Of a stretch of 64,000 nt of DNA, positions 7,555 through 59,700 are shown piece by piece. Source of the stretch: a virus; the IMG/VR virus record IMGVR_UViG_3300036391_000001, positions 7,563-71,562 of that record. One strand, written 5' to 3'. Every line of letters starts with the position of its first letter. Position 1 is the stretch's first letter. The translations under genes were made by a program, and so were the position numbers. A model generated the notes under the pieces. It was not told the DNA's origin. It searched no databases and saw only the letters and a list, made by a program, of their open reading frames with translations.

Positions 7555-7636
7555 TTTAGTCGTTCTTCCTCCTTTGGGGTGACTAGGTTAAGTTGCAAAA
7601 AGCCTGCCGAGATTGATACCGATGGCAGGCTTTTTG
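7555..7636 (+). ncRNA. Candidate small RNA with anti-SD loop and terminator
   Basis: TATACT at 7546; TAGTC/GACTA stem with CTTCCTCCTTT loop; AAAAAGCCTGCC/GGCAGGCTTTTT terminator at 7597-7635. Confidence 0.4.
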
Positions 7637-35907: not shown

Positions 35908-35985
35908 ATGCTTGAAACCATCGTGATCTCGCTCTACATCCTCTCGGTTTGCGTCCTAGCCGATCGCTTCACTAGGAGCGCTTAG
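35908..35985 (+). CDS. 25-aa hydrophobic peptide coupled to terL
   Basis: MLETIVISLYILSVCVLADRFTRSA; TAG overlaps the terL GTG; conserved motif 35 nt upstream. Confidence 0.35.
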   Translation: MLETIVISLYILSVCVLADRFTRSA

Positions 35986-37472
35986 TGGGACATTGGGCGG
36001 CGCTGCTGCAGGATGAAATTGACTTGCGGCGGCAGGTAGAGGCAGAAGCTGACGTAGGCTGTACGCTGTTTGAGAAGTTCTCGCCTAGACCGGGTGGGCA
36101 AAGTCGGTTCTTTGAGTTCGCGCCGATCGCCAGCACCGAGCCGATGGATACGCGCTGGCTCGGCTTGATTGGGGGCATCGGATCAGGTAAGAGCCATTGC
36201 GGGGCAGCCTGGTTCTGTTCTCGGATGCTGCTTGATCCAGATAGCCGGGGGCTGGTCACAGCCAATAGTTATGGGCAGCTTGCGAGATCTAGTCTGATGA
36301 CGCTGGCTGAGATTTGTAGAGACTTCGACATTCCGCTAGAGCCTTGGGTAAGTGGCTCTGTGGAAGATACGGCGTTAGCGATCGCCAATCGTCAGCGCTG
36401 TTACATTGGCGAGGATCGGGCGTTTGTCTATGTCCTGTCGCTCAATGCGTTTATGGGCAGAGTGCAATCAGCACGGGGTTTACAGGTGAGAACCTCGTGG
36501 ATTGATGAGGGAGCTTATGCAGGTGAAAAATCGTTTCAGACGCTGGATGGAAGATTAGGGCGTGGACCCGGATTTCTCAAAGGGCAAGGGCTGATCACCT
36601 CATCGCCCAACGGCTTTAATTGGATTTACGATCGCTTCGCTGACCCCAACAGAGCTGCTGAACTCAAGGTTCTGTATGTGATGTTTTCTTGCTCAACCCG
36701 TGACAATGTGGAGTCGCTGGGCGAAGACTATGTGCAGTCGCTCGAAGCCAACTACACCGATGAGCTTGCCGCTCAGGAGCTTGAGGGTGCGTTCATTAAC
36801 ACCACTACTGGACGGGCTTACAAATACTTCGATCGCGCCAAACATGCGATGCAGGGTGAGGATGCTGAGATCCTGTTCTATGACCCAAATCTTGACCTGC
36901 ACGTTAGCTTTGACTTCAACTACAGCCCTGCAACTTGCACCTTGGCCCAGGTTCGAGGGAATGAGGTGCATTTCTTCAAAGAGTTTTTCGTGATGGATTC
37001 AGACACTTGGGAGATCACGTCGATGGTAACGGAGGCGATCGCTCAAGGCAAACATCAAGCAGAAATCTATATCTATGGCGATGCGTCAGGTTCGGCGCGA
37101 ACGGCGGTGAGTCGCCAAAGCAATTGGGACATTGTGTTCAACGGCTTTAAAGACATTGGCTACCACCTGGGCTTAGGTGGCAGGCTGCATCGGCGATTCG
37201 CTAAGGCGAACCCGCCCGTGAAGAACCGAATCAATAGCTGCAACTGCCTGTTCAAGGCTAATCGCGTGTATGTGGATTTGGAGCAGTGCCCAGAGCTAAC
37301 GAAGGATTGGGAAGTGGTGGGCATCATTGAGGGGGAGCTGGACAAAACAGACCCGCTGCGAAGTCACTTGTCGGACGCAGCGGGTTATTTGATGCATACG
37401 CTCTTTCCCTACAAGAATGTGGCGATCGAGCTGCGGGGGAATCATGGGGCTGTTAAAGGGATTGCAGGTTAG
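35985..37472 (+). CDS. terL: Terminase large subunit
   Basis: GGIGSGKS Walker A, WIDE Walker B, SSPNG coupling motif, C-terminal nuclease SFDFN, YGDASG, HLSDA. Confidence 0.93.
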   Translation: MGHWAALLQDEIDLRRQVEAEADVGCTLFEKFSPRPGGQSRFFEFAPIASTEPMDTRWLGLIGGIGSGKSHCGAAWFCSRMLLDPDSRGLVTANSYGQLARSSLMTLAEICRDFDIPLEPWVSGSVEDTALAIANRQRCYIGEDRAFVYVLSLNAFMGRVQSARGLQVRTSWIDEGAYAGEKSFQTLDGRLGRGPGFLKGQGLITSSPNGFNWIYDRFADPNRAAELKVLYVMFSCSTRDNVESLGEDYVQSLEANYTDELAAQELEGAFINTTTGRAYKYFDRAKHAMQGEDAEILFYDPNLDLHVSFDFNYSPATCTLAQVRGNEVHFFKEFFVMDSDTWEITSMVTEAIAQGKHQAEIYIYGDASGSARTAVSRQSNWDIVFNGFKDIGYHLGLGGRLHRRFAKANPPVKNRINSCNCLFKANRVYVDLEQCPELTKDWEVVGIIEGELDKTDPLRSHLSDAAGYLMHTLFPYKNVAIELRGNHGAVKGIAG

Positions 37473-37645
37473 GGCGCGGTGCGCCACTCGATCGCATCTA
37501 GATAGGGAATGCCAGCGGCTTCGGCGGCTTGGCGATCGCTTCCTGTCTAGGCTTCTCAGCACTCCGTTCTCCATTGCATCAAACTCACATGAAGAATCTG
37601 ACGATTCGATATACTTTGTGAGAACCAACTACAAGTTGAAGGTGC

Positions 37646-39097
37646 ATGAGAGACTTATTTTCCTGGAGACTTCGTCTATCTGAAGCTGAGGTTTCAAAGC
37701 TGTGGGAGAGCGCCATTTTTGTCTTTGATACAAACTTTCTCCTAGATTTATATCGGTTATCGCGCAAAACTACTAACGATCTTTTAACGATATTAGAGCG
37801 TATTCAAGACAGAATTTGGATACCTTATCAAGTGGCTGACGAGTTCTTTAGAAATCGAGAAGCCACTATTGACTCAGAAGCAAGGTCTTTTGAAAAAGCA
37901 TTATCAGAACTGGAAAGCTGGAAACTTCAACAACAAAAATTTGGTAATCTTAGAGACAAACTCAGCAGCGCAGGAAGGACAATAGCTGCTGAATTAGTGT
38001 ACTTCCTGAATGGACAAGAGAATTATCTTGACGAGCAAAAGCGTTATCTTGATGCAGTTGATGAGTTAGTAGAAGCCTCTCGAGAAAAAATTAAACAGAT
38101 TGAGAGCGCTCATTTTCCGCTCAATGCAGATGAAGATCTTATTTTAGATAAGATCCTCTTGCTATTTGACTCGAAAGTAGGAAAAGCCTTTGATGACAAG
38201 GCTTTACAATCCTTATACAAGGAAGCCGACGAAAGATACGACCAATTAATACCTCCTGGCTATTGCGATGTCACAGACAAGAAGGGTAATGAAAAATACG
38301 GGGACTTTATTCTTTGGAAGGAATTACTAAACTTTGCAAAACAGGAATCCCGGCCAATTATTCTTGTGACCAGTGAAAAGAAAGAAGACTGGTGGATTAA
38401 ACAACAAGATGGAAAAATTAAATCTCCACGTTTAGAATTGCGTCGCGAGTTCCAAGAATATGTGAACCAGCCATTTTGGATGTATCGAACTGGGCATTTT
38501 CTTAAAGAGGCTAAGGAGAAGCTTGAGATTGAGATTGATCCAAAATCGATCGAAGAAACGGATGCAATTGCCGATATTGAGTTAGTTGACGAAAAAAGGC
38601 GTGACACTTTAAGGCAAGTAGCTGAGCATATAGTGTTAAAGCAGCTAGGAGGCCCTAGTGCTGCCATTGAACAGATACTTGAGAGAACAAGGTTGCCGAA
38701 CGCTGAAATGTTAGAGCAGCTAGGAGGCGCTAGTGCTGCCATCGAACGGATGCTTGAGAGAACAAGGTTGCCGAACGCTGAAATGTTAGAGCAGCTAGGA
38801 GGCACTAGTGCTGCCATCGAACGGATGCTTGAGAGAACAAGGTTGCCGAACGCTGAAATGTTAGAGCAGCTAGGAGGCGCTAGTGCTGCCATCGAACGGA
38901 TGCTTGAGAGAACAAGGTTGCCGAACGCTGAAATGTTAGAGCAGCTAGGAGGCACTAGTGCTGCCATTGAACGGATACTTGAGAGAACAAGGTTGCCAAA
39001 CGCTGAAATGTTAGAGCAGCTAGAGTTGTCTCATAAACCTCAAGTGAGAAGCGAAAAACCGAAACCTGAACAGGAAGATCCTTCTCTTGATAGCTAA
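37646..39097 (+). CDS. PIN-like domain protein (DUF4935-type) with C-terminal 25-aa tandem repeats
   Basis: FVFDTNFLLDLY, IPPGY.D, GDFILW, SEKKEDWW motifs. Confidence 0.82.
   Translation: MRDLFSWRLRLSEAEVSKLWESAIFVFDTNFLLDLYRLSRKTTNDLLTILERIQDRIWIPYQVADEFFRNREATIDSEARSFEKALSELESWKLQQQKFGNLRDKLSSAGRTIAAELVYFLNGQENYLDEQKRYLDAVDELVEASREKIKQIESAHFPLNADEDLILDKILLLFDSKVGKAFDDKALQSLYKEADERYDQLIPPGYCDVTDKKGNEKYGDFILWKELLNFAKQESRPIILVTSEKKEDWWIKQQDGKIKSPRLELRREFQEYVNQPFWMYRTGHFLKEAKEKLEIEIDPKSIEETDAIADIELVDEKRRDTLRQVAEHIVLKQLGGPSAAIEQILERTRLPNAEMLEQLGGASAAIERMLERTRLPNAEMLEQLGGTSAAIERMLERTRLPNAEMLEQLGGASAAIERMLERTRLPNAEMLEQLGGTSAAIERILERTRLPNAEMLEQLELSHKPQVRSEKPKPEQEDPSLDS
38641..39023 (+). repeat. 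In-frame 75-bp tandem repeat, 5 copies plus a partial copy
   Basis: Units start at 38641, 38716, 38791, 38866, 38941 (QLGGxSAAIERxLERTRLPNAEMLE). Confidence 0.97.
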
Positions 39098-39443: not shown

Positions 39444-39812
39444 CGGCGATCGTCCTTTTGAGTATTTGCATACGATGAGAATAAGACGATCGGGTTGCAT
39501 CCACACATCATGTTTGACACATGACCAACTGCGATCGACTCTAGCCCTGGTACTGAATGATGAAAAGAGCAATCGCCCTACTAGAGAGCGATCGCGGTTG
39601 GTCACAGGATTCTAGAAGGGCAAGGGTCTAGCGGCTGCTACGAGTGCCATCATCTCGCGTCTATCCCAGTACCAGTTCCACAGGCTTTCACGGGTGCCCA
39701 CGAGGGTTTTACCGGGCATTGCCATCTCGTAGAAGCGAGGGTTGCACGGGTTCTGGGTGATGATGCCGCCGACGCGAGCGTAGATGGTGCGCAGCTCTTC
39801 CAGAGTAGGGAG
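39444..39812 (-). repeat. Repeat A, left copy (inverted relative to 50038-50404)
   Basis: About 370 bp alignable by eye, covering the 3' part of the 39612 gene and its downstream region. Confidence 0.9.
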
Positions 39813-41134: not shown

Positions 41135-41488
41135 GTGAGTGAGCTAGATGACATTAAAGCAATCCTGCGACAGGTAGCAGAGAATCAGGCTACCCAGCAG
41201 CGGCAGCAGCGCACCCAGCAGCAGATAGAGCAGCTTGCCGCTTAAGTACAGGGAACGATTCAGGAAACCGCTTCAGACGTTGTATCCATGATCGGCTCCC
41301 TAGCGCATGACATGGATGCCCTATCTTCCAACGTGAACGCTTATATCGCGCAATCCACAGCATTCCTAGCGGCTGAGCAGCGCGATCGCTCAGAGTTCCG
41401 GCAGCAGATGGTAGGTCTGCAAACCGAGACGCGCAATATCTTGAGGGAGCTGGCAGATTTAAGGCGATCGCAGGGTACAGATAATTAA
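41135..41488 (+). pseudogene. Coiled-coil gene split by TAA at 41243
   Basis: Track ORFs 41057-41245 and 41288-41488 share a frame; Gln-rich context suggests CAA>TAA. Confidence 0.6.
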
Positions 41489-41672
41489 CGAGTTACAGCC
41501 GCACAGAACAGTAGTCTGAGCCGCTGGAAACTATGCGAAGAGACGGTTTTACAGGCGCACAAGTTGATGTGCTTGCGATCGCAGGTGACTTGGACAGACG
41601 GAGCAGTAGCAAGCTATCGGGATTTTTGGGCTAATCTTCCCAATAAATAACCGAGTTGGGAGAAAGTATTAA
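41467..41672 (+). repeat. Repeat B, left copy (inverted relative to 49277-49483)
   Basis: About 205 bp with long identical runs, e.g. TTTTACAGGCGCACAAGTTGATGTGCTTGCGATCGCAGGTGACTT. Confidence 0.92.
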
Positions 41673-41802: not shown

Positions 41803-42087
41803 TTAAATATCGTCTGGAGCCTTGCCCTGCTTCAATCGACTAATCGACAGTTTTAGTTTCTCGTTAACTAGCTGCTTGTTTTCGTATTCAACCTCTACGG
41901 ACTCTTCCTGGAGAAGCCCAGGCAAGCCCCGTTCCACCGCCATGCGGATCATTGTGGCGCGATCAACATTTCGACGCTCTGCAATCTCTTCCAGCCTTCT
42001 CAAAGCAGGCTTGGGCAGGCGGAGCGAGATTTGCTCCATGTTGTCATCTTTTGGCGGCATGGTCACAGGGTCTTGTTTTGGATTCAT
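41803..42087 (-). CDS. CopG/RHH-family regulator
   Basis: EQISLRLPKPALRRLEEIAERRNVDRATMIR. Confidence 0.8.
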   Translation of the reverse strand: MNPKQDPVTMPPKDDNMEQISLRLPKPALRRLEEIAERRNVDRATMIRMAVERGLPGLLQEESVEVEYENKQLVNEKLKLSISRLKQGKAPDDI

Positions 42088-42247
42088 TTTACTCGCCTCT
42101 CTTGTCACAAAATTCAGATAAATCTCATTAAAGCAATTTTTGAATCCCACTTGAACCTCACTTGGGATTTATGTGCTATTTTTTGTTTAGTTGCTCCACC
42201 GGACTCAAACCGGAATCCGGAGCGGAATCTGTTTTCAGTCCGGCACC

Positions 42248-42493
42248 ATGCAGACCGAAATTGTCCAAGACGACTGGAGTAGCGAGGATTTGCGGCGCGA
42301 GCTGCTGATCTGGGCAAACATCGAACTGAAGCGATCGCAGTTCTATCTATGGCTGAAGCACGCCTATATCAAGCCGCAACAGCCAAACGTTTACACGGAT
42401 AGCGATCGAGCTAAGTTGCTAAGATTTGCCCACCTGATGCAACGCTATCGCAGCCTCAAGCTTGCCAGCAAAAAACTCTACGAATCCTTATAG
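42248..42493 (+). CDS. Small DNA-binding (MerR/Xis-like) protein
   Basis: Short helical ORF, VYTDSD..KL pattern. Confidence 0.45.
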   Translation: MQTEIVQDDWSSEDLRRELLIWANIELKRSQFYLWLKHAYIKPQQPNVYTDSDRAKLLRFAHLMQRYRSLKLASKKLYESL

Positions 42494-42502
42494 GAGCCAA
42501 AG

Positions 42503-42970
42503 ATGCCTACAGAACAAGAACAGCAAATGTTTGAGCAATTGCACGGAAAGCGACCCGAACTCAAACGCCCCACCCACCCGACCACAGCCCGATCGCCCCA
42601 CCAATCCAAGCCCAGCGACAGCGCCCAGGTCAATCAAGTGCGCCAGCAATCCCAAAGCGCGATCGGACTTGCCAGCCAGGGCATCATTGGCAGCTCCGGC
42701 GAATCTTTGCAAAAGCTAGATCAGCAGCTATCCCGCTTTGAAGATCGCTACGTCACCACCGTGCAGCAGCGCATTGCTGAAGTTCCTGCCCGAATTGAGG
42801 CAAAACTAGCCGCCGCATTGACTTGGGGGCAAGAAGGGATTGACCCGCTAGATGCGCTGTTCGCTGAGCTGGAGGCCTGGGATGTTGCTGAAGTCAGCAG
42901 CATTGACCAGTTCTTGTTTGGAGAGAAGGCGCTCGCGTCCCTGCCCACCTCACAGCAGCTTTCGGAATAG
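42503..42970 (+). CDS. Coiled-coil hypothetical protein
   Basis: AGGAG RBS, Gln-rich. Confidence 0.6.
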   Translation: MPTEQEQQMFEQLHGKRPELKRPTHPTTARSPHQSKPSDSAQVNQVRQQSQSAIGLASQGIIGSSGESLQKLDQQLSRFEDRYVTTVQQRIAEVPARIEAKLAAALTWGQEGIDPLDALFAELEAWDVAEVSSIDQFLFGEKALASLPTSQQLSE

Positions 42971-43050
42971 TCCACAAATTAGAGCCAGTCCCGACTTTGC
43001 ACGGCTGGGGCTGGCTGTTTATCCACTAATACCACTCAGAGGATTTTTCA

Positions 43051-43545
43051 ATGCTAAGCGAAAGCGATCGCGCCCATCCAGACACCAAGCCCAGGCCCCG
43101 TATGGATTTTGGGGCAGTCTTCGACGACGAAAACGATCGCTCTGACACGAGACAAGCAGCCCCACATGATTCATGGGCGATCTTGATTGGGCTGGAGGCT
43201 CTAACAGCAGAGCAACAGAAGGATATAGGGTTTTTGTTTGAGGAGATTAAGCGAGTCTCTGTCTTGGAATTAAAGGTTGAGCGCTTGGATAGCACGGTCA
43301 AGACACTCGAAGACATTCTGGACAATAGCGACAAAAAAGCAATTCGGATAACGACCCGCCGCTATCAGGTCAGCGAGTTCATGCGGTTCATCGGCATGAC
43401 AGCTCTAGGTTTTACTGCGGTTCTGTTCGTCGGCTCTACTCTGTCCGGCGATCGCCTTCAGAAGGATGAATATGCCCAGACTGCCGTACTCGCTGGACTG
43501 ACAGCAGTTACAGCAATGTCGATCGGCTTCAACTTGCAGGATTGA
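43051..43545 (+). CDS. Membrane protein (coiled coil plus two C-terminal hydrophobic helices)
   Basis: FIGMTALGFTAVLFVG and AVLAGLTAVTAMSIG. Confidence 0.65.
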   Translation: MLSESDRAHPDTKPRPRMDFGAVFDDENDRSDTRQAAPHDSWAILIGLEALTAEQQKDIGFLFEEIKRVSVLELKVERLDSTVKTLEDILDNSDKKAIRITTRRYQVSEFMRFIGMTALGFTAVLFVGSTLSGDRLQKDEYAQTAVLAGLTAVTAMSIGFNLQD

Positions 43546-43642
43546 GCCAGTCATCTCATCCTCCAAAATAAAGCAGGGCTGAGCAACGCCCAACCCCGCC
43601 AATACATTCGTGCCCACATTCTAACTGTTTGGAGGATGCCCG

Positions 43643-43996
43643 ATGCTACGACTCATCACGATCGCCGCCGCTGCCCTGGGCGCTGCCATTGCTGGAAGCA
43701 ACTTCTTTACCGATTTCACCAATCACAAGAACTGGCGTAGCTTCGGGCAGTACGAAGTGATCACCCAATACGATGCAGGATTCTATTCAGCCTGTGGAGC
43801 GCTTTTAGGAGGAGCGATCGGACTCAGCGTTGAATTGGCGCTAACCCGCTACTTGATTTACCGCAATAGCGACAGACTTCGCCGCGAACTGCTTCAGATG
43901 CGAGATTTACCCGGAGTCACGCCTGAGCAACAGCAAGCGATCGACCTCACCCTTGCAGGGATTGCAGAAAACAAAGCCAGAGCCATAAGAACATGA
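43643..43996 (+). CDS. Membrane protein (two hydrophobic helices)
   Basis: LITIAAAALGAAIAG and GALLGGAIGLSVELAL. Confidence 0.7.
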   Translation: MLRLITIAAAALGAAIAGSNFFTDFTNHKNWRSFGQYEVITQYDAGFYSACGALLGGAIGLSVELALTRYLIYRNSDRLRRELLQMRDLPGVTPEQQQAIDLTLAGIAENKARAIRT

Positions 43997-44637
43997 ACCT
44001 CAAAGCGGTCATCTTGCTCCCGTTGGTGGCAGCGGCGGGCATCACGATTTTTGCCACCAGCCTCAGACCTCAGATTCCTAACCTCAATATCGCCGTTCCC
44101 GGTGCAGCCGTAGCCTCTGCACCCCAACCGGAAGGGCAGCTTGCCAGTCCTGTGCTCACCAAAGGCGAAGACAAATCACGGGTTGCTGTGGCGCGGGATG
44201 CTTACCTTGACAAGGCGATCGACACCATTGATAGCCAGCTTGCAAACATTGTCTGCACCCGCAAAAACCTCTACCTGAGCCAAGCTCAAGAGTGGAGCCG
44301 TCAAACCGGAGGCAGTACCGAAAAGTGGCTACTCGATCGTCTGGATGTCCTTAAGAGCGATCGGGCTAAGAATCCTAATGCTTTCACCGGGCTGGATGGC
44401 AGTACCGACCAATTCACTTACAGCAAGGATTTCAGCCTAGATGCCTTAGCGCTGATGACCGCTCTGCAAGAGCAGTATCGCGGTGAGGTCAACAGGGGCT
44501 GCGTGACCAACTTTGCCACCAGCTTTCAGGAGCTAGACAAGTTTCAACGCGAAGCCCAGACCTATCGGGCATTGCTTGAACAACGCCAGCAGCAGTTCAC
44601 AGAAGCGTCAGGAGAGGGTAATGGTAGCAATCAATAG
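43993..44637 (+). CDS. Exported/membrane-anchored protein
   Basis: N-terminal signal-like segment AVILLPLVAAAGITIFA. Confidence 0.65.
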   Translation: MNLKAVILLPLVAAAGITIFATSLRPQIPNLNIAVPGAAVASAPQPEGQLASPVLTKGEDKSRVAVARDAYLDKAIDTIDSQLANIVCTRKNLYLSQAQEWSRQTGGSTEKWLLDRLDVLKSDRAKNPNAFTGLDGSTDQFTYSKDFSLDALALMTALQEQYRGEVNRGCVTNFATSFQELDKFQREAQTYRALLEQRQQQFTEASGEGNGSNQ

Positions 44638-46015
44638 CGACCGACAATCCAAAGGGCGCAACGCCATGACCTCTATGTTTGGTGCTGCTTTGAGTCTGTG
44701 GTTTCTCAACGCTGCCTACACCAGCCCAGCCGCCTTCATCATGAGAGCGTTTCTGTTCTTGTCTGGCTCTGCGGTGCTAAGCGCCTCAGTGCATCGGACA
44801 GTGAGGCACAGGCTTGGCCCTCAAGATTTCTGGGATGGCATTACCGAAGTGTTGGCAGATGATGTTGCAGCTACCGGAACGCTGCTATTGAAGTCAGCCG
44901 ATCGCGCTACTGCACCACTTGACCGGATTGTGTACGATCGCCTCCCAGCGTCAATTCAGCGCAGTTTGCCTCCCGCGTCGGTAGGTGATACCGCCTGGTT
45001 TGAGCAGGTTGCTTTCTGGCGCGACTCTAAGTTCATTTTTGGGCGCAAGGGCACAGGTAAATCGGTGCTGATGGGCTATGAGTCGTGGGTCATCAAGTCT
45101 ACAGATCCAGAGGCAATGCTGTTTGTTCTAGATCCTCACCTGGATGCTGAAAGTTTGTGGTTTGGCGGAAACTCTGAACTGATTAAAGCCCATTGCTACA
45201 AGTCCATTCAAGACTTTGCCCGCATCTTTGACCTGGTTGCCTCTGAGCTGGATGACCGCAAGACTCAAGGCGATCGCCGCCGCCCATTATGCAAAATTAT
45301 TGCGGATGAGTGGGAGTCCATTATCAATGGCTTTGCCAGCTTACCCGCCCGGTTTCCAGAGGGTGACGATCGCCATGATGAAGCCGTAAAGCTATCGGTC
45401 TATGCCGAAAAGATTCCAGCGATCGCCGCGTTCATTCAGGATGAAGGGCAAAAGTTTCAGGTGGAATGCACGATCGGCGCTCATGGAGGCAAAACCAAAC
45501 GATCGGGTATTGACTCAGACATCCTGCTTCAGATGCACTGGATCGCCTGTGATGACGCGCTGACTATGCCCAATACGCCTTTGCTGCAAGTGGTCAAAGG
45601 CGAGGCGCAAAAGCTAGAAGCCAATCGCCGTCGTCTGCTGCCTTACGCGGGTGAGCATCAGAAGTTTGCAGGAACCGCTATTCTGCGGTGCGTCAAGTCC
45701 AGAAGCAAAACAGAGCCTTGCCTAAAAGCGGTTGGGCTGCCCTGGATTGACTTTGAAGGCGCTGAGGTGATGGCGATCGCGCCTGAGCCAGTAGACGCTC
45801 ATGTGGCAGACGCTCCTCAGTCAGAAGAAGAGGCTTGGCTGCAAGAAAATCGGGCGAAGCTAGTCGAGGTTTATCGGTCTGGCACGACCTCTCTTCGCAA
45901 ACTTTGCGAGACATTTGATGTCGCCAGAGACAGTCGAAAGGGCAGATTGATTGCTGACTTTCTTCAGCAGATGAGAGCGATCGATGATGCCGAGCTTGAG
46001 CCAGATGCCGCATAG
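44621..46015 (+). CDS. Membrane-anchored FtsK/HerA-superfamily P-loop ATPase with C-terminal HTH-like domain
   Basis: Two N-terminal hydrophobic helices; GRKGTGKS Walker A; VLDPH; IIADE Walker B; C-terminal SLRKLCETFDV helix-turn-helix-like segment. Confidence 0.75.
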   Translation: MVAINSDRQSKGRNAMTSMFGAALSLWFLNAAYTSPAAFIMRAFLFLSGSAVLSASVHRTVRHRLGPQDFWDGITEVLADDVAATGTLLLKSADRATAPLDRIVYDRLPASIQRSLPPASVGDTAWFEQVAFWRDSKFIFGRKGTGKSVLMGYESWVIKSTDPEAMLFVLDPHLDAESLWFGGNSELIKAHCYKSIQDFARIFDLVASELDDRKTQGDRRRPLCKIIADEWESIINGFASLPARFPEGDDRHDEAVKLSVYAEKIPAIAAFIQDEGQKFQVECTIGAHGGKTKRSGIDSDILLQMHWIACDDALTMPNTPLLQVVKGEAQKLEANRRRLLPYAGEHQKFAGTAILRCVKSRSKTEPCLKAVGLPWIDFEGAEVMAIAPEPVDAHVADAPQSEEEAWLQENRAKLVEVYRSGTTSLRKLCETFDVARDSRKGRLIADFLQQMRAIDDAELEPDAA

Positions 46016-46040
46016 GCAAAAACGGCACTTTTAGCGCTTC

Positions 46041-46168
46041 CACCACCACCACCACCAGCGCGACCACGAAAAATCAGTACTTTCAGCCCTCAAAGTGGTC
46101 GCGTGGTCGCGCTGGTGGAAGCGCATTTCGACCACAAAACGCGACCACGACCACCCCAACGCGACCAC
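46041..46168. repeat. Cluster of (CG)CGACCAC / GTGGTCGCG repeats with a perfect 17-bp inverted repeat
   Basis: CCACCAGCGCGACCACG 46052-46068 / CGTGGTCGCGCTGGTGG 46102-46118; further copies at 46095, 46129, 46140, 46148, 46160. Confidence 0.9.
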
Positions 46169-46190
46169 TTTCTACCGGAGTTTTAAAACC

Positions 46191-46445
46191 ATGACAGACC
46201 TAATTGGTAAAGTTTGCCTTGTACTCGTGACCATAGGACTGCTCTCTACAGGCATCACCCGATGCTCGATCGATTTGGAGAATGGAGCCAAATTTATGCG
46301 AGGTGTTGGTGGCTCCATGCTGGGCACAAGTAACCCAGAAATCGGCGGGAACTGTGAGGACGGCGTTTGTGTTGAAAGCGGTCGTCCGACTCAGAGCTTC
46401 GATCGCCCTAGGCAGCCTACTCAATTCAATCAACCCAGCCGCTAG
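46191..46445 (+). CDS. Small membrane/exported protein
   Basis: GGAG RBS, N-terminal hydrophobic helix. Confidence 0.6.
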   Translation: MTDLIGKVCLVLVTIGLLSTGITRCSIDLENGAKFMRGVGGSMLGTSNPEIGGNCEDGVCVESGRPTQSFDRPRQPTQFNQPSR

Positions 46446-46458
46446 GAGTAAACCAGCA

Positions 46459-46698
46459 ATGCAAGCGATCGAATTTCTTCAAGGATTTGGATGGATTTGC
46501 GTTGCTGCCTACTGCCTCAATGGACTGGGATTAGTGCCTACGTCCTGGATTAATGCAGCTCAGTCCAGGGCGGGTATCCCGGTTGAAGCAGTGAGCAGCC
46601 CTAGCCCGTCATCTAGCCCAGTCCCATCGGCAACACCCAGCCCAACCACGACACCGCAGGAGTCATCAGGTGACAAGCAGTTCAGCACCCAGCAATAG
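46459..46698 (+). CDS. Small membrane protein with Ser/Pro/Thr-rich tail
   Basis: AGGAG upstream; hydrophobic N-terminus; SPSPSSSPVPSATPSPT. Confidence 0.6.
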   Translation: MQAIEFLQGFGWICVAAYCLNGLGLVPTSWINAAQSRAGIPVEAVSSPSPSSSPVPSATPSPTTTPQESSGDKQFSTQQ

Positions 46699-48028
46699 CG
46701 CAATTGTTAAGTATGGGGCGATTCAGCCCCATGTCCATGACACCTATCGCCACCGCTGGGGTTTTGATGAGGATGAGGACTTTGCAGCAGAAGATGCACG
46801 AGAAGCCTATGAGCAGTCGGTAAACTGGCGATCGCCCAATGCTGCTAAATCAGCGGCGTATCAGGCAGGGCGAGGCACAAGGGAGGCGATCGGTAGTGCA
46901 GCCGCCGCAATTCAGGCTTTGGAATACACTCCGCCACAGTGGATAGGTGATGTTGCCGCCGCTGAGCTGGAGGGCATCAAAAAAGAGTTGGCACGACAGA
47001 ACAGATTGGCTCATCGGCAGGTCTACAGTAAGCTTCTGTCGTGGAATACCTATTCGTTGGGCTTAGCGCTGCTGACTATGGGCACTGTGAATGTATACAT
47101 GGCGCTAGCAAGTCAGTTCAGCCTGCCTCTCGGTCAGTATGCCGATCGCGGCTTTGTGGGCACAACTGATGCCGTCTACACAAAGGAAATCAAAGAGGGA
47201 GATAACATCAACGGCTACACCGTGACCAGTGGCTTTGGAGAGCGAGATGCACCGGACACGAATCAAGGCAAGGGATCGAGCTTCCATGAGGGCGTTGACC
47301 TAGATACCCCAGAAGGCACGAACCTCTACATGATTGGCGAAGGCGGAACGGTTGAGTGTGAGCAGCAGCCAGAGGGGGCTGGTACCTATGCCATCATCAC
47401 CCCTAAAGGATTGCCTTACACCTTCAAGGCAATGCACCTGAGCAAATGTGAGGCGGGTGAGTACCAGACAGGCTTAGCGTTTGGGCAAACAGGCAACACG
47501 GGAAACTCATCAGGCGCTCATCTCCACTGGGGGATGTTCAAAGATGGTAAGGCGATCGCCCCCACCGAAGGCTATCTCTGGTGGGCGTTAACCGGGAACG
47601 CGCCGAAGCCGCATGGAGGCGCTTTGGCTGAGACTGGATTCGACGGCGTGGATGACTTTGCTAAGGCGATCGCCCAACAGGAAAGCGGCGGCGATATTAG
47701 CATCGTCAATTCGATCGGCGCGATGGGAAAGTATCAGTTCATGCCCGATACGCTGGACTCTATCTCTCAGTCCTGCTTTGGTCGGCAAGTCAGCCATGAT
47801 GAATTTCTAGCCAGTGAAACAATGCAAGATCAGGCGGCTAAGTGCTATTGGCAGCCTGAAATCAACAAAGTACAGCAAGCAACCTCCGACCCGGTGCAGC
47901 AGTGTCGAATGATGGCAAGCTACCACTACTCAGGCGATGCTGAAGCCTGGGACAGTAATGCTAGTCAGGTCGATGCTCCAACTATTGCGGATTACACAAA
48001 GCAGGTTTGTGGCAAGATTCAAGGTTGA
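46670..48028 (+). CDS. Peptidoglycan hydrolase: TM anchor, M23 peptidase, lysozyme/transglycosylase-like domain
   Basis: TSGFG, HEGVD (HxxxD), HLH; AIAQQESGG...GAMGKYQFMP. Confidence 0.9.
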   Translation: MTSSSAPSNSAIVKYGAIQPHVHDTYRHRWGFDEDEDFAAEDAREAYEQSVNWRSPNAAKSAAYQAGRGTREAIGSAAAAIQALEYTPPQWIGDVAAAELEGIKKELARQNRLAHRQVYSKLLSWNTYSLGLALLTMGTVNVYMALASQFSLPLGQYADRGFVGTTDAVYTKEIKEGDNINGYTVTSGFGERDAPDTNQGKGSSFHEGVDLDTPEGTNLYMIGEGGTVECEQQPEGAGTYAIITPKGLPYTFKAMHLSKCEAGEYQTGLAFGQTGNTGNSSGAHLHWGMFKDGKAIAPTEGYLWWALTGNAPKPHGGALAETGFDGVDDFAKAIAQQESGGDISIVNSIGAMGKYQFMPDTLDSISQSCFGRQVSHDEFLASETMQDQAAKCYWQPEINKVQQATSDPVQQCRMMASYHYSGDAEAWDSNASQVDAPTIADYTKQVCGKIQG

Positions 48029-49276: not shown

Positions 49277-49483
49277 TTAATACTTCCTCCCAACCCGGTT
49301 ATTTATTGGGAAGATTAGCCCAAAAATCCCAGTAGCCTACTACTGCTCCGTCTGTCTAAGTCACCTGCGATCGCAAGCACATCAACTTGTGCGCCTGTAA
49401 AATCTATCTTTTCATGTGGCTTCCAGCGGCGCAGACCGCCTTTCTGTGCGGCTGTAACTCGTTAATTATCAGTACCCTGCGAT
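49277..49483 (-). repeat. Repeat B, right copy
   Basis: Reverse complement of 41467-41672 with scattered substitutions. Confidence 0.92.
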
Positions 49484-49659: not shown

Positions 49660-49892
49660 GGGTTAGGAAACTCTCTAGCGTCGCAGCCAAACAGATCACA
49701 AAGCGTCTTGATCTGCTGAATTGAGAACGCTGGCTGCTGAGTGCCATTCTCCCAAGTGCTTATGGTTTGCCGGGTCACGCCAAGCTTTTGCCCCAGCTCA
49801 GCTTGACTTAGCTCAATCATGCGCCGCTGCATTCCCAGCCACGCACCAAACTTTGGGGGGTTCATTTGTCCAATCGTTAATTGGGTTGTCAT
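49656..49892 (-). CDS. XRE-family HTH regulator (right module)
   Basis: FGAWL...R...LSQAELGQKLGVTRQTISTWENG..P. Confidence 0.9.
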   Translation of the reverse strand: MTTQLTIGQMNPPKFGAWLGMQRRMIELSQAELGQKLGVTRQTISTWENGTQQPAFSIQQIKTLCDLFGCDAREFPNP

Positions 49893-49936
49893 GTCAATCT
49901 TATTTTACCTATTCCAGATTAATCTATCATAAATAC

Positions 49937-49974
49937 GACAGATTGACTTGACATATGACAGATTAACTTGACAT
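49937..49974. promoter_or_regulatory. Operator repeats GACAGATT(G/A)ACTTGACAT at 20-bp period
   Basis: Copies at 49937 and 49957. Confidence 0.75.
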
Positions 49975-50035
49975 CCTGATTACTAGGAAAAGCGGCTCGC
50001 CGACCAAAGTTAACCGTTTTTCCCAAGACAAAACC

Positions 50036-50237
50036 CTTTCCTACCTTAGAGGAGCTGCGAACCATCTACGCCCGCGTTGGTGGCATCATCACCCAAAACC
50101 CTCGAAACCCTTGCTTTTACCAGATGGAGATGCCTGGAAAGACGATCGTGGGCACTCGTGAAAGCCTGTGAAATTGATACTGGGATAGACGCGAGATGAT
50201 GGCACTCGTAGCAGCTGCCCGTCCGCTGCCCTTCTAG
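50036..50237 (+). pseudogene. Truncated copy of gene A with two TGG>TGA stops
   Basis: FPTLEELRTIYARVGGIITQNP...RESL*N*YWDRREMMALVAAARPLPF vs the intact 39612 gene. Confidence 0.88.
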
Positions 50238-50404
50238 ACCTCTCATGACTACCGCGATCGCTCTCTAGTAGGGCGATCGCTCTTTTCATCATTCAGTACT
50301 AGGGCTAGAGTCGATCGCCGCTGCCATGTGCCAAACATGATGTGTGGATGCAACCCGATCGTTTTATTCTCATCGTATGTAAATAATCAAAAGGACGATC
50401 GCCG
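50038..50404 (+). repeat. Repeat A, right copy
   Basis: Reverse complement of 39444-39812. Confidence 0.9.
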
Positions 50405-50466
50405 CAACCTTCCACGGAAAAGCGATCGCCCTCACTACTCAACCAGCAATTGAGATATCTACCATC

Positions 50467-51000
50467 ATGGCACTACTTTCGCCCGTCGAGATTTCTGTGA
50501 CGATCGCTACAGCGACCGTCAACCTTGCACTTCTAATAAAATGGCAGCAAGCCGAAACTAGGATTCAGCAGCTAACCGTCTGTCCTAGCTACGGATGCTT
50601 GACTAGACAAGGTGTTGATATAGAGTGGAAGCGAAGACACGATCGCCCTCCCAAGCCCAGTATTGTTTTCTTCGACATTGATGGCATGAAAGAGGCAAAC
50701 GCCAAGTGGGGTTACGCTGAGGTCGATCGCCGTATTTCGAGCGTAGTCTCTCAAATTCGCAGCAGTGAGCTAGTAACACTGGGGCGCTATTTTTCGGGTG
50801 ATGAGTTTGTCATTATTTGCTCAAAGTCCGAAGCTTATGTAACTGCGAATCGCATCTGCAAAGCCTTTGCCGACCAAAGCATGAGTGCCACGTTTGCGAT
50901 CGCCCCTTGCGTCTCCGCATCGCTTGAAGAGTGCGTCAGACCCGCCGCTGATGCAGTGCAACTGGCGAAGCTGCAAGGGCGGCGCGGGACGATTAATTAA
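50467..51000 (+). CDS. GGDEF-domain protein (SGDEF variant)
   Basis: FFDIDGMKEAN.KWGY..VD; GRYFSGDEFVI; no RxxD I-site. Confidence 0.85.
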   Translation: MALLSPVEISVTIATATVNLALLIKWQQAETRIQQLTVCPSYGCLTRQGVDIEWKRRHDRPPKPSIVFFDIDGMKEANAKWGYAEVDRRISSVVSQIRSSELVTLGRYFSGDEFVIICSKSEAYVTANRICKAFADQSMSATFAIAPCVSASLEECVRPAADAVQLAKLQGRRGTIN

Positions 51001-51051
51001 CCCGCAATTCCCCTAACAGCCCTCGAATTCCCCCGAAGCTCGATCGCCCCT

Positions 51052-52707
51052 TCAACCTGCATTCAGTTCAAGCTGTTCACCCTCCCTTTCAATGTGGCGT
51101 GCAGAAGATTTTAGGACACCTGCAACTAAGGGCAAGCCGAGTCTAGTCTTGCCCTCTAGCACCTCTTCAATGGTGACAATCTGAATGCGGGGGGTGTCTG
51201 TATTGAACGACTCAGAATGATATAGCCCACAAGCCTTTGCCTCTTTCACCATTGCCTGTGTTGGCGGCTTGAGGGTGAGGAAGACTCCCAGCTCAGCGTT
51301 CTCTCGGCTGATTGTGCCAAACAAATCTCGAATGTCTCTAGAGTCAACCTTTCCCGACTTTACTTGGAAGATGACGCGACCAAACTTTTTATCAGTGATT
51401 GGAAAGAATCCCCACCCATCAACGCCCTGGTCTGCTCCCTTCTTCTGATTGATGGCGGCGCGGTTACTGGAGTAGGTCAGCACCGCCCATTTCTCAAACT
51501 CTTTTCGTAGCCGATCGTCTTTTTTGAGTGCCAACGCCTCAGCCGATTTTATGTCCTTGGGGATGCCTGTAAGCTTAAGCGAGTCCGAACTCACTACCTG
51601 AGCACCATGAGTGTCCTCTAGACGCTTCAGAATGAGGCTGATGCTTTGGTAGGTGATGTCGATGCCAATCCACTGGCGATCGAGCTTCTGGGCGACCGCT
51701 ACAGTCGTTCCGCAGCCACAGTAGGCATCTAGTACAACATCCCCTACGTTGCTACTTGCTTGGATGATGCGCTCCAGCAAAGCTTCGGGTTTCTGAGTGG
51801 GATAGCCGAGGCGTTCTTTATCATGTGCGCTTAAAGATGGAATGTCATCCCAAACATCAGATGTAGGAACCCCAGGCATTTCATCTAGGTAGCGCTTGAG
51901 TTGGGGTCGTTTGGATTTGCTATCTGGATACCAAATCCTGCCTTGAGCATCTAGCCCTGCCATTGTTTCCTTGGAATACCGCCAGCCGTTAGATGGCGAT
52001 AGAAATCCCTTCCATTCGTACATCATGTTTGGGCGAGGACTAGGGCTAGTCATGTCAGATAGCCGATAGCAGCGACCAGCCACGTCTGTGTGACGATAAA
52101 AGTCTTTAATATATTTCTCAGAGTAAGGAGAATATTGAACATTAAAACAATGTTGATTGCTCTTGGCGTAAAGAAAGATGATGTCGCTTGTAGAACCGTA
52201 TCGGCGTTTTGCGTCATTATGACCGTTGGTTCTTTTCCAAGTAATCTCGTTCTTAAAATCTCCGCCTTGTGAGCAGAAAACAGAGTCTAGAACCAACTTC
52301 AGATAGTGGCTAGACGTGGGATCGCAGTGCAAATAGAAGCTACCAGTAGGCTTGAGAACGCGATGAATTTCAGCAATTCGTAGGGTCATGCTGATGAGGT
52401 AAGCCAGCAAGCTACTTGCGCCCAAAACGTAATGCAGACCGATGATTAGGTCGATCGTCTGCTTGGCGAAAATCCCTCGATTGTTCTCTACGATTTCTTT
52501 GTAGCCGTTGATGGCTAAATCGTCCCAGTTCCAAGTATCAACAAAGGCTTGAGCCTGAGCTGCATCTTCTTTGCCAACGTTGTTGTAGATCTGGTTGTAA
52601 TTTCTTTTGGAGTTGAAAGGTGGATCGATGTAGCACAAATCCACCACTTCATCTTTGATGTGCTTCCTAAGAACTTCGAGGCTATCACCGTAATACAAGC
52701 GATTCAT
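51052..52707 (-). CDS. N6-A/N4-C DNA methyltransferase with C-terminal Mrr-like domain
   Basis: DPPFN motif [20 protein letters not shown]; GADQGVDG...IFQVKSG. Confidence 0.9.
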
Positions 52708-56740: not shown

Positions 56741-59700
56741 CCTGCAAGAAACAGCCTTAGAAGCCTCTAAATCAACTCCTTGTCCACTTTGCGGTCACGA
56801 TCACTACTGCTACTTAGTGCAGAACGATCGCGGTGACATCTTCAAAGCCATTTGCCAATGGACAGGCGAAGCTCCGGAAGGATGGGATAAGACAGGTGTT
56901 GCTAAAGACGGCAGGGGAAAGTTTGTCAGGCGAGGTTTTCAACGCTTTAAGCGGAAACACTACCCCGACTATGTGCAGCTCACGCCACAGGAGAAGTCTG
57001 ACATCCCTCAATGGAAGGACTACCTGCTGGGTATGTCAGGCGATCCGGCTCCCTTAGCCAAAAACGGTAAAGCCTACGAAATGGCGATCGATTATCTTTA
57101 CCCCGACGAACAGGGACAACCATCGGGCAAAGTAGTTCGCATTCAGTGGAGCGATCGCCGTCGCGCCTACGACAACAACCGAAAGACTAAGATGGTTCGC
57201 CCTTGGCATTGGGTACACCACACTGAGGGCGGTTTTTGGTCAGATCGGGGTAAGGGCGATAAGACATGGACGCTCTACCGGGAATCTGAAGCTAAAGAAG
57301 AGATTTTGCGGGGCGGTATTGTTTTTGCCGTTGGCGGTGAACAGGCAGTTGAAGCCTACCGAGAGCTGGGGCTAACGGCTACCACATGCCAGGGCGGAGA
57401 AGCCAACTGGCGAGAGATTGTTATCCGACTGAAAGACACCTTTGCGATCGCCAGAAGGGACGGGCTGAAGCCGATTTTGGTCATTCATCCAGACTACGAC
57501 CTGACTGGGGAAAGCAAGTTTGGAGAGCTACAGAGAGAGTGCGATTTTGCACGCGTTTCCGCCGTTTCTTTAGAGCCGCCTACTCTGTGGGCAGAAATGC
57601 CCGCCGGGGGAGACATCTGGGATCTAGTTCATCTCTCTGGATTGCCTCAAGACACTATTCTTCGCTCCCTAGAAACTGCCATTGATGAAGCGATCGATCA
57701 CCAAGAGAGCGAAATTGTCGCACGCCAGCAGCGCGATCGCTGGCAAGCTCCTGAGGTTTATAGAGGCGAGTTGGGCTATTGGAAGGAGACGAAGGAAGAG
57801 GGAGAAGTTGTTGGCAGGTTTTTTAAACCTCAAGCTGACTTTGACTTTCAGGTTGAACGCGAACTCATCAGCGAAGATGGCGGTGGTCTGGTCTTGCAGG
57901 TCAAGAGAGCAGACGAACCCACACAGCGCCGGGTTTTTCTCAAGTCGAGCGACTACAGCACCGTTCAAAAATTCACTGATGCACTCAAGCGCTCATTGGG
58001 TGGAGGGGTAGTTTGCAATTTATCGAGCTATTCACTTCAGGCATTAATCCGGGTAAGGCTGCATGAATACCGCATCACCCGACATGGCAAAGCCTATCGA
58101 TTGGTCGATCGCGTGGGGCAGCAGCCGGATGGAATCTGGGTGTTTAAGCAATCTCAGTTCACCAAAGACGGAGAACCTACTAAAGAAGAGCAGTCTCTCT
58201 GGGTCTGGAATCCAGAGATTACGGGCGATGATGCCCACTTCAGATCTCCGGTGATTGCTCCTCAAGACCCCCAGGCACTGCGAAACCTGGTGCAAACCAT
58301 GCACCGGGCTTTTGGCAGCAACTTTGCTCCCGCTCTTTTGACTCTGGGCTACGGCGCGGCTGGAATCCACTATCAGGAAATTCAGGAGAAGGAAGGCGCG
58401 TTCCCCATCCTCAATCTCTACGGCGATCCGGGCAGCGGTAAAACCACCGCCGCTGAATGCGCCCTATCCCTAGCAGGGCAGCAAAAGGAGGGCATGATGG
58501 TCGAAGTGTCCGTTAGTGCTGCTTACGAGCGTCTGAAGCTGGCAGGAGGGCTGCTGCACTGCTTAGACGACCCCAAGCGCGATGATTCGTTAGACGAATT
58601 CCTTAAGGGTTTCTACAACGCTAAGGCGAGGGTAGTTAGAGGCAAAGATAATTCAGGGTTTAACACCCAGAAACCCCACAGTCCGCTGATGGTCACTTCA
58701 AATCATGCTTGCGGTGAGAATAGTGCTGCCACTCAGTCGCGTCTAGTCCGACTGTTTTTCCCTAAAGTGCAGGATGGCGACGCGGCTGCATTTCGAGAGC
58801 TGCCGAATATCCAGGCGATCGCTTCTGGTTGCTTCACACAGATGCTGCAACTGGGCTATCCCGCACAAGAGGTGTATGCCCTAGAGCAGGAGCTAGCCGC
58901 CCAAATCCCCAATGCTCACCTACGAATTGCCAAATCTTTAGCCCTCTTGCTCTGCTATGCCATGAAGGTGGCAGAGCTGGCAGGCATCGACTCCGCCCCT
59001 CTAAAGCACTACGTTTTTGAAACGGTCTGCGCCCAGGTCAACGACCCCGACGAAAGCGGCGACAGCCTAAGAGACTTTCTTGAGAAAGTCTTCTCACTGG
59101 ACTCAGAAGCAAAAATCGGTGAATGGAATTGCCGCTGGATTGAGAAAAAGGAGGATGGCAGCCGAGCGTTGGCAATCTATCTGCCTGGAGTCTGGACAGC
59201 CCTCGACCGAGAGTACAAAGTTTCCTACAACCGGAAGATTATTGAGTCCTTGCTCCTGAGCAAGGGGTTGAGAAAAACCCGATCGAATTTTCATGCCGAT
59301 GAAGATCAGAGCCGCGCATACAAGCGGGCCAAATTAACGGCTGCTGACAGCAGCTTGGTCAATCCTCCAGAGCGAACCCAAAGATGGTCGTATGAATTGC
59401 CTGAGTCGCTCTTGAGGGAATACAGCGAAAAGAGTGGAAGCGAAAAAAGATCATCAAGATCATCAGAGCTTGAAAAAGAGCCTGAAACCCTTATGAGCAC
59501 TGGGGCTTTCTCTGATGATCTAAAAGATCATCAGAGATCATCAGAGATCATCAACCCCAGTCCTGATGATCTTTTGGATGGGGCTGATGATCTTTTGATG
59601 ATCGAAAAGATCATCAGCGATTGTCAGCCTCCAGAGCAGGTTTCAGCCTCTAAAACACCCTCTGATGATCTTGATGATCTAGAAAATGCAAAAGCTCAAC

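Follow-up and report, generated by a model that had tools for sequence, protein, structure and literature searches.

The window, a 64-kb stretch of DNA covering positions 7563–71562 of contig C3 in a cyanobacterial genome (G000; 6.4 Mb, 99.8% complete), carries a conserved unit of six genes at 43643–48028. The genes encode two membrane proteins (p117 and p214), an ATPase, two further small membrane proteins (s84 and s79), and a wall hydrolase combining M23 and SLT domains. We regard it as an even bet that this cassette is an envelope-spanning module, similar either to the TraB/Spd systems of Streptomyces or to TcpA of Clostridium perfringens, by which mobile elements of filamentous cyanobacteria transfer or spread their DNA. 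By its functional anatomy, the cassette is closest to TraB with its clt site and Spd proteins, and the closest protein to its ATPase by fold is TcpA.

The ATPase has the Walker A motif GRKGTGKS and the Walker B motif IIADE. It belongs to no family in Pfam (E 0.1), NCBIfam, or PADLOC, its only match in PHROGs is family 38189 of unknown function, and a single-sequence search of the PDB returned no match. Only ten close homologues were found among 5.8 billion clusters, and a profile search yielded 121 representatives. The profile of a 62-member family weakly matches HerA/DUF87, EssC/EccC, and FtsK chains. The FtsK_SpoIIIE domain (PF01580) gives weak matches in four of these 62 relatives and none in the window ATPase, and single members touch DUF87. 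Hence, an FtsK/SpoIIIE-type translocase domain is not recognizable by sequence in the window ATPase, and the likeness is structural only.

An AlphaFold model of the ATPase was built from the 62-sequence alignment (pLDDT 86.8) and superseded an earlier model from nine sequences (pLDDT 62), which had given weak TcpA matches. The model comprises two long N-terminal helices, which are the membrane helices, a helical region, a RecA-type core (residues 137–375), a short disordered linker, and three final helices (402–459); the RecA-like motor spans approximately residues 118–390. In an exhaustive structural comparison, the VIA-align Z-scores were 18.2 for TcpA of plasmid pCW3, 16.3 for FtsK, 15.0 for EccC, 14.9 for HerA, 13.9 for VirB4, and 12.3 for TrwB, and TcpA was superposed with a root-mean-square deviation of 3.1 over 221 residues. 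Foldseek concurs, with FtsK/TcpA at E 4e-5; among the AlphaFold database models of Swiss-Prot proteins, FtsK/SpoIIIE align via residues 129–454, and Tra of the Streptomyces plasmid pIJ101 via residues 6–454. A hydrophobic N-terminal segment is present in 57 of the 62 family members. The Walker A lysine K147, the Walker B glutamate E230, K278, and K291 are invariant in the family, and D229 and H288 are also conserved.

The C-terminal domain fits the usual helix-turn-helix (HTH) pattern by sequence, and in the model its three helices resemble the HTH of resolvases, ISL3 transposases, and Terminase_5 small terminases. The model thus supports the assignment of the ATPase, by fold, to the FtsK/TcpA/TraB branch, as a membrane-anchored protein ending in an HTH. 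An FtsK-like or VirD4-like NTPase with N-terminal membrane helices is also what is expected of a TcpA-type coupling protein, and the window ATPase agrees with this. An earlier note on this DNA had proposed a membrane-anchored FtsK-type ATPase with a C-terminal HTH, and this description held. It had also likened the domain to the winged HTH of TraB; here the HTH is retained and the wing is not, as a plain three-helix domain is predicted.

The six genes travel together. Five metagenomic loci (L001–L005), with ATPases 48–75% identical, keep the order p117, p214, ATPase, s84, s79, hydrolase. A contig from a biocrust metagenome matches exactly positions 43628–48022 at ∼95% identity and is divergent beyond them; both in biocrust and in sediment metagenomes, the core is ∼95% identical and the flanks differ. 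G000 itself contains a second, divergent cassette on contig C45 (5078–9234, minus strand; ATPase 26–30% and hydrolase 44% identical), beside a gene for a 1288-residue protein, on a 22-kb contig of lower G+C. The cassette order was also found at 35% identity in a metagenome-assembled genome of Leptolyngbyaceae and at 27% in L029/L030. At 21–25% identity, in three other cyanobacterial families (L018, L019, and L020), an anchored M23 gene lies downstream of the ATPase gene; in L018 and L019, M23 and SLT are split into separate genes, and L020 has M23 only. The hydrolase gene is next to the ATPase gene in L001–L005, C45, L008, and L029.

A complete plasmid, pOSCIL6304.02 of Oscillatoria acuminata PCC 6304, carries the cassette in the order small membrane protein, membrane and coiled-coil protein, ATPase (481 residues, profile E 6e-18), two small membrane proteins, and M23+GH108 hydrolase. 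It was found via the hydrolase, as tblastn with the ATPase on the plasmid collection gave no match. A Streptomyces plasmid matching the SLT-like domain was rejected: the match is in an unrelated hypothetical gene, and no translocase is annotated there.

Overall, the linkage of ATPase, hydrolase, and small membrane proteins held at 75%, 48%, 35%, 27%, and 21–25% identity. Since in this survey of cyanobacteria the ATPase remains paired with the wall hydrolase down to 21–27% identity, also on plasmids, the hydrolase is a component of the module, and not simply the endolysin of a prophage, as the earlier note had allowed. Nor does the cassette belong to the prophage as such. The six-gene unit, framed by inverted repeats, recurs on plasmid-like and integrative elements; it is therefore a portable module, and its place in a prophage-like element is incidental.

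The hydrolase consists of a cytoplasmic N-terminal domain (residues 1–125), a membrane helix (129–147), an M23 endopeptidase domain (205–298), and an SLT-like lytic transglycosylase domain (329–391). It matches Peptidase_M23 (E 4e-10) and SLT/Transglycosylase (E 3e-6) in Pfam and MepM/ShyA-like proteins in NCBIfam, and its HxxxD, HxH, and E-S motifs are intact in sequence; this agrees with the anchored M23 plus lysozyme-like enzyme described before. The M23 domain also matches PHROG families annotated as endolysin. A complex prediction for the ATPase and the N-terminus of the hydrolase (residues 1–160) scored 0.00, gave no verdict, and is evidence for neither side. Among the small proteins, p117 is 70–80% identical in L001, L003, L004, and L005 and 44% identical in L002, p214 is 78–83% identical in the close loci and 58% in L002, and the identity across L001–L005 is 50–71% for s84 and 63–85% for s79. 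For p214, we found neither a family in Pfam or NCBIfam nor a usable structural neighbor in the ESM Atlas.

Behind the ATPase gene lies an array of short repeats, with five exact copies of the 9-mer CGCGACCAC in 110 nucleotides. No other exact copy occurs in the window. The whole genome contains 23 copies, and its sole site with at least three of them in 200 nucleotides is the 3′ flank of the ATPase gene; the repeats are real and did not arise by chance. The two minus-strand copies stand in tandem. In L001, L003, L004, and L005, the layout is the same: an intergenic region of 110–131 nucleotides contains 2–5 motifs with the CGAC core, as compared to 0.5–0.7 expected, which is a three- to ten-fold enrichment, and in all four the minus-strand copies precede the plus-strand ones. 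In L003 and L004, an extra plus-strand copy of the locus' own motif variant lies within the last ATPase codons. The array of the C45 paralogue consists of four GAGCAG copies and a box. Helix 3 of the HTH is conserved (R-D/N/E-S-R/A-K-G) in the CGAC-core clade and differs in C45.

The earlier note placed a noncoding cluster right after the ATPase stop codon. Its five copies, unique in the genome as a cluster, are there, and so is the perfect 17-bp inverted repeat. Part of the region was, however, coding. The ATPases of the relatives are 20–25 residues longer and have a Thr-rich tail, and the window gene has an earlier stop in another frame; since the relatives still translate this tail, the (CCA)n run with the first motif copy is a relic of former codons. 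The box TTTCAGCCC directly follows the ancestral stop. It is kept in L001 and L005 and has one change each in L003 and L004, and the GTTTCAGCCC box is also kept in the C45 paralogue, though the ATPases are only 26–30% identical. The TTTCAGCCC box may serve for nicking, processing, or binding. The plus strand of the intergenic region matched neither promoters nor terminators. The order A B ... A′ B′ of the motifs, rather than A B ... B′ A′, appears to fit protein-binding sites better than a single hairpin.

The cassette is carried by plasmid-like, integrative, and prophage backbones. Two carriers are contigs with names ending in "_c" (taken as circular) of 40 and 46 kb with genes for ParA or ParA/ParB and toxin–antitoxin genes. 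In others, which are integrative elements, a large primase-helicase (VapE, D5_N/DUF5906, or DUF3854) is accompanied by an integrase or XisA/C-like recombinase. Distant copies reside on contigs of plasmid size in assemblies that are almost complete, frequently with a homologue of the window's 1079-residue primase close by. In L005 (10001–12657 of the circular 39.6-kb ENA contig ctg348813_4x_c), the cassette is decaying, with the ATPase split into 376 and 131 residues and the hydrolase truncated to 191 residues.

The gene hetR is a marker of filamentous cyanobacteria. Among 401 sampled cyanobacterial genomes, eight contain the ATPase family; all eight are hetR-positive, as compared to 101 of the 401 overall. 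All named carriers (Leptolyngbyaceae, Oscillatoria) and the hosts of the phages described below are filamentous. In this sample, the confinement of the family to hetR-positive hosts is suggestive and does not amount to proof.

We also searched for partners of known conjugation systems. In G000, neither the relaxase family PF03432, the only relaxase family searched, nor VirB4 (PF03135) was found above the cut-off; for AAA_10 (PF12846), there was no match above the cut-off and a match below it on another contig. No relaxase or VirB4-type ATPase is visible in L001–L005 or L029. Hence the co-occurrence of a VirB4-family ATPase and a relaxase, which marks coupling proteins of type IV secretion systems (T4SS), was observed neither in G000 nor in the homologous loci, in line with what the earlier note had seen in the window. 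FtsK_SpoIIIE (PF01580) had no match above the Pfam cut-off in the whole G000 genome, and the two cassette ATPases appear to be its only translocases of the FtsK branch.

If the cassette is a transfer module, it may work as follows. The ATPase, held in the cytoplasmic membrane by its two helices, would form a ring-shaped motor of the FtsK/TcpA type and pump DNA. Its C-terminal HTH would select the DNA of the element itself by recognizing the short repeats at and just behind the 3′ end of the ATPase gene, so that these repeats would act like clt. A passage through the membrane would be formed or gated by the four small membrane proteins, in the manner of Spd proteins in Streptomyces, and the membrane-anchored M23 + SLT hydrolase would cut a local opening into the peptidoglycan. 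We infer the direction and route of transfer accordingly from cell to cell along the filament, so that a plasmid, a prophage, or even the genome of a lytic phage could spread in this way. The septa of cyanobacterial filaments are not entered by the outer membrane; therefore, the only barriers would be two cytoplasmic membranes and the septal wall, and few parts might suffice. A module lacking outer-membrane parts, VirB4, and a relaxase could then spread an element along the filament. Only tentatively do we go further and suggest that this is a relaxase- and VirB4-free system, either independent of TraB/Spd or anciently diverged from it, in which a membrane FtsK-like pump, small channel proteins, and an M23 + SLT enzyme that cuts the septum move whole double-stranded elements between adjacent cells of a filament, among them plasmids, integrative elements, prophages, and perhaps lytic phage genomes. 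In that case, one entry event might be enough to colonize, or to kill, the entire multicellular organism; we see this as possible and rather doubtful.

To our knowledge, the VirB4-based class MPF-C is the only conjugation class described for cyanobacteria. A full-text literature search on FtsK/TraB-type conjugation in cyanobacteria and another on phage spread via septal junctions yielded no account of such a system, and a relaxase-free FtsK-like transfer cassette is probably new to this phylum.

In Streptomyces, TraB binds 8-bp clt repeats, and this single FtsK-like protein transfers double-stranded plasmids, while small Spd membrane proteins bind peptidoglycan and, together with TraB, spread plasmids across the septa (PMC4447253). 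The cassette resembles these systems (pSVH1, pIJ101 with Tra/KilA, pSG5) in having a membrane FtsK-like motor with a C-terminal DNA-binding domain, predicted here, repeats of 8–9 bp at the 3′ end of the motor gene, and an operon of small, sequence-diverse membrane proteins with a link to peptidoglycan (PMC4447253, PMC3548315). A divergent small repressor gene near the motor gene recalls the kil–kor pair, both systems ride on small replicons and integrative elements in hosts that are multicellular and septate, and pIJ101 Tra can be aligned structurally, as given above. The absence of PF03432, PF03135, and PF12846 above the cut-off in G000, with a single relaxase family covered, would be compatible with a TraB-like protein that by itself moves plasmids as double-stranded DNA. 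The differences are the lack of detectable sequence homology, the three-helix instead of winged HTH, the replacement of the canonical arginine, repeats in both orientations instead of direct repeats, the dedicated M23 + SLT hydrolase within the cassette operon, and the diderm cyanobacterial host.

TcpA, in turn, shares with the cassette ATPase the two N-terminal membrane helices and the FtsK-like rather than VirD4-like branch, and it is the best structural match of the motor domain. Unlike the cassette ATPase, TcpA lacks a C-terminal HTH. Wall hydrolases and small membrane proteins are part of the Tcp locus, too, and Tcp requires the VirB4-like ATPase TcpF, the VirB6-like channel protein TcpH, and the relaxase TcpM. 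Such T4SS partners were not found here (searches of G000 for PF03135, PF12846, and PF03432). TraB has been reported only from Actinobacteria, and TcpA homologues only from Firmicutes (PMC3548315); reports of double-strand DNA conjugation driven by one FtsK-like pump are likewise confined to mycelial Actinobacteria. Given the failure of sequence membership, an HTH with no wing, inverted repeats, a built-in bifunctional hydrolase, and missing T4SS partners, the window ATPase is a member of neither the TraB nor the TcpA family; it represents a new family outside both.

FtsK and SpoIIIE, the top Foldseek matches, also combine an N-terminal anchor, a RecA-type pump of double-stranded DNA, and a C-terminal domain that reads sequence (the gamma domain, reading KOPS or SRS); in the cassette ATPase, pumping and sequence reading would fall to the motor and the HTH. 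In contrast to one local cluster here, FtsK motifs are dispersed and polar along the chromosome. Moreover, the cassette ATPase has no long linker, its HTH is not winged, and its gene resides on mobile elements, in a genome without a canonical FtsK domain above the cut-off. As for the hydrolase, PrgK, TraG of pIP501, and CwlT of ICEBs1 are membrane-anchored bifunctional wall hydrolases of Gram-positive VirB4-based type IV conjugation. They, too, are encoded in transfer operons and join an anchor to two different wall-cleaving domains, a glycosidase and a peptidase; unlike in these proteins, the pair here is M23 + SLT (or GH108) and follows a 125-residue cytoplasmic domain.

Homologues of the ATPase are also found in lytic phages. 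With tblastn, seven myophages that infect Nostoc, Anabaena, and Dolichospermum proved to encode one, 26–31% identical over the motor: N1, A1, A-1(L), Elbi, YongM, YongM2, and Dfl-JY23 (records OR360731.1, A-1(L), 35974–37566; MT426122.1, YongM, 49811–51382; KU234532.1, KU234533.1, MZ078141.1, OP834087.1, and PP438415.1). Two of the records annotate the homologue as "DNA translocase FtsK". The phage gene lies in the early/replication region and is preceded by genes for small membrane proteins and acidic helical proteins. In A-1(L), the homologue (A1L_45) has 530 residues and two N-terminal membrane helices and is encoded near the DNA polymerase; the next gene encodes a protein of 362 residues that lacks membrane segments and does not match the hydrolase significantly, and the downstream spacer is an ordinary terminator plus promoter. 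Whatever the role of the motor, a virulent phage can also use it.

Several observations count against a transfer module. The virulent Nostoc/Anabaena myophages carry the ATPase and small membrane proteins without an adjacent hydrolase, and therefore the ancestral role may lie in the phage cycle. Plasmid pOSCIL6304.02 carries a MOBP relaxase 30 kb away from the cassette, with no annotated VirB4, which means that independence from a relaxase is not general. No part crossing the outer membrane is visible, though transfer between filaments would need one. The earlier note had cautioned that the ATPase reads GQK instead of GR, and this caveat stands: at position 277, the arginine of the EGRK segment, 52 of the 62 members have R, the window ATPase has Q, and its nearest clade has E, which may mean a different or weak action of the motor. 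Nor does the HTH have the wing of FtsK-gamma or TraB. The repeats downstream of the ATPase gene, expected in homologous modules, are present in L001, L003, L004, L005, and C45, but there is no array directly downstream in L002, L008, L029/L030, pOSCIL6304.02, or the phages; as the distant cassettes lack it, the array is a recurrent trait of one clade and its paralogue and not of the whole family. The motif layout is also compatible with a hairpin, and a short consensus stem is possible: RNAalifold, applied to five intergenic regions, yielded an 8-bp stem with some double changes and a covariation term of about zero. Finally, the link to hetR is confounded by phylogeny and genome size, as the eight genomes come from five families and are not independent, and filamentous genomes are larger and richer in plasmids.

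Among other explanations, the motor may have a different role in the cycle of the phage or element, where it might draw incoming DNA across the cytoplasmic membrane, expel or block superinfecting DNA, or clear and segregate element copies at septa as they close, with the hydrolase remodeling the wall there. We hold this to be unlikely. It would account for the two-helix homologues and small membrane proteins among the early/replication genes of the seven virulent myophages, for the large terminase (TerL) and structural proteins of the window element, akin to those of Nodularia and Aphanizomenon siphophages, and for a host without a canonical FtsK domain above the cut-off. On the other hand, most carriers have no phage genes in the 14–21 kb read, ParA or ParB genes are present in several, no PADLOC model matches the cassette, and neither segregation nor exclusion needs a link to periplasmic wall hydrolases. 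The lysis cassette of a prophage, with the small membrane proteins as holins or spanins, the M23 + SLT protein as endolysin, and the ATPase as an unrelated neighbor, is scarcely credible: the matches of the M23 domain to endolysin-annotated PHROG families are offset by the pairing of ATPase and hydrolase down to 21–27% identity, also on plasmids without phage genes, by the second copy on C45 beside its own ATPase, and by the 125-residue cytoplasmic domain before an internal anchor, which is unlike signal-anchor-release endolysins.

It is quite improbable, in our judgment, that the ATPase is a TcpA-type coupling protein for relaxase-dependent single-strand conjugation, with a distant or unrecognized relaxase (for instance, the large primase-like protein) nicking the TTTCAGCCC box and the small membrane proteins forming a minimal channel. 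All known relaxase-dependent systems have VirB4 (PMC3548315, PMC4027160), and PF03432, PF03135, and PF12846 are absent above the cut-off from G000 and not visible in L001–L005 or L029, with one relaxase family searched. What speaks for such a coupling protein is that TcpA is the single best structural match, that a conserved box by variable inverted repeats is the usual geometry of oriT, that pOSCIL6304.02 has its MOBP relaxase, that nearly every locus has a gene for a large primase-helicase close to the cassette, and that the window encodes ArdC, which is typical of conjugative elements. A small type VII-like (EssC/EccC) system for protein secretion, exporting the small helical proteins encoded upstream or the hydrolase, is very improbable. 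EccC/EssC domains are among the best structural matches (Z 14–15), and small helical proteins of ∼100–160 residues are indeed encoded upstream; these proteins, however, are not conserved with the cassette, the hydrolase has a membrane anchor of its own, there is one ATPase domain as opposed to three in EssC/EccC, and a C-terminal HTH with an adjacent array of specific repeats has no role in protein export.

The features of the locus are listed in Table 1. Nine plus-strand genes form an operon in the order p100, p155, p164, p117, p214, ATPase, s84, s79, hydrolase. Membrane segments, called by simple hydropathy, are present in p164, p117, p214, the ATPase, s84, and the hydrolase, which bears out the operon of membrane or exported proteins seen earlier. 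The coordinates given at that time placed genes and repeats correctly, with small changes required for the intergenic region and the two small genes behind it.

Table 1. Genes, repeats, and other features at the cassette locus; positions are those of the window.
Feature	Position	Strand	Description
Outer inverted repeat	39444–39809 / 50040–50404		∼365 nt; 84–95% complementary; nested outside the inner pair
Inner inverted repeat	left arm 41467–41672, right arm 49277–49483		∼205 nt; 82–94% complementary; frames the cassette
RHH regulator	41803–42150	−	Pfam RHH_1 E 1.2e-5; PHROG CopG/Arc-like repressors; divergent
p100	42191–42493	+	no hydrophobic segment; soluble by hydropathy
p155	42503–42970	+	no hydrophobic segment; soluble by hydropathy; coiled-coil candidate of the earlier note
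p164	43051–43545	+	two C-terminal membrane helices (hydropathy)
p117, core gene 1	43643–43996	+	small protein; two membrane helices, hydrophobic 4–22 and 50–68
p214, core gene 2	43993–44637	+	N-terminal anchor or signal, then periplasmic helical domain
ATPase, core gene 3	44621–46015	+	464 aa; FtsK/TcpA clade; start as in other gene callers
Intergenic region	46016–46190		repeats, box, tail relic, 17-bp inverted repeat
Tail relic	46041–46080		(CCA)n run and first motif copy; former Thr-rich C-terminal codons
Perfect 17-bp inverted repeat	46052–46068 / 46102–46118		
Exact CGCGACCAC copies	46059(+), 46095(−), 46103(−), 46140(+), 46160(+)		five 9-mers in 110 nt (46059–46168)
Box TTTCAGCCC	46081–46089		directly after the ancestral ATPase stop
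Degenerate CGCGACCAC copies	46129, 46146	+	among the exact copies
s84, core gene 4	46191–46445	+	small; N-terminal membrane helix, hydrophobic 4–22
s79, core gene 5	46459–46698	+	small; moderately hydrophobic N-terminus, Ser/Pro/Thr-rich tail
Hydrolase, core gene 6	46670–48028	+	bifunctional M23 + SLT wall hydrolase, membrane-anchored

The divergent ribbon-helix-helix (RHH) regulator was recognized as such by Pfam, as had been claimed. Its gene has no homologue in L001–L005 and is an accessory gene, not conserved with the cassette. Of the genes upstream of the ATPase that had been counted as part of the module, p117 and p214 stay in it. In contrast, p164 is not conserved in L001–L005 and is absent from a biocrust relative, and p100 and p155 have weak matches, among these five loci, in L001 alone; none of these three proteins matched a family in Pfam, PHROGs, or PADLOC. 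PADLOC found no defense-system match for any of the ten cassette proteins, and Pfam and NCBIfam found no WXG100 or Esx family among the neighbor genes.

The G+C content of the cassette is higher than that of its immediate flanks, and the unitigs of the source run break at the nested inverted repeats. In relatives from sediment metagenomes, the segment 48318–49239 (the MerR gene region) is in the reverse orientation. The element around the cassette does look phage-derived. It carries TerL and a gp10-like protein, its TerL and structural proteins are akin to those of Nodularia and Aphanizomenon siphophages, and siphophages of Nodularia, Aphanizomenon, and Planktothrix encode homologues of its large proteins; the element also encodes ArdC, ParB-like proteins, and a primase.

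In window positions 1–22000, proteins of 938, 1190, and 1419 residues match PHROG families of unknown function and a tape-measure family. The 1190-residue protein has homologues in siphophages of Nodularia, Aphanizomenon, and Planktothrix with genomes of 113–147 kb, and the element may be a member of this group of large cyanophages. The ends of contig C3 share 127-nucleotide overlaps with contigs C4 and C56. Two other repeat regions were seen in the window. At the end of the gene for the 1079-residue primase-like protein (∼59521–59680), nine copies of repeats with a GATCATC core occur in 160 nucleotides and may constitute an iteron-type origin. The densest short-repeat region of the window, with GCAGCTA-type words, is at ∼38791–38950, within the 3′ part of a PIN_8/HTH gene (37646–39097).

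Even if its function differs from the one proposed here, the cassette ATPase defines a well-delimited, deeply conserved family that lacks annotation and has homologues in model phages of Anabaena PCC 7120, where it is open to genetics. If the cassette does spread DNA along filaments, mobile elements crossing the septa of a multicellular bacterium would have a second, independent example in filamentous cyanobacteria, and the movement of cyanobacterial plasmids typed as non-mobilizable would be explained. It would further raise the question whether phage infection can travel within a filament without virions. Six genes and a site of ∼130 bp would also provide a small genetic handle for DNA delivery in these organisms.

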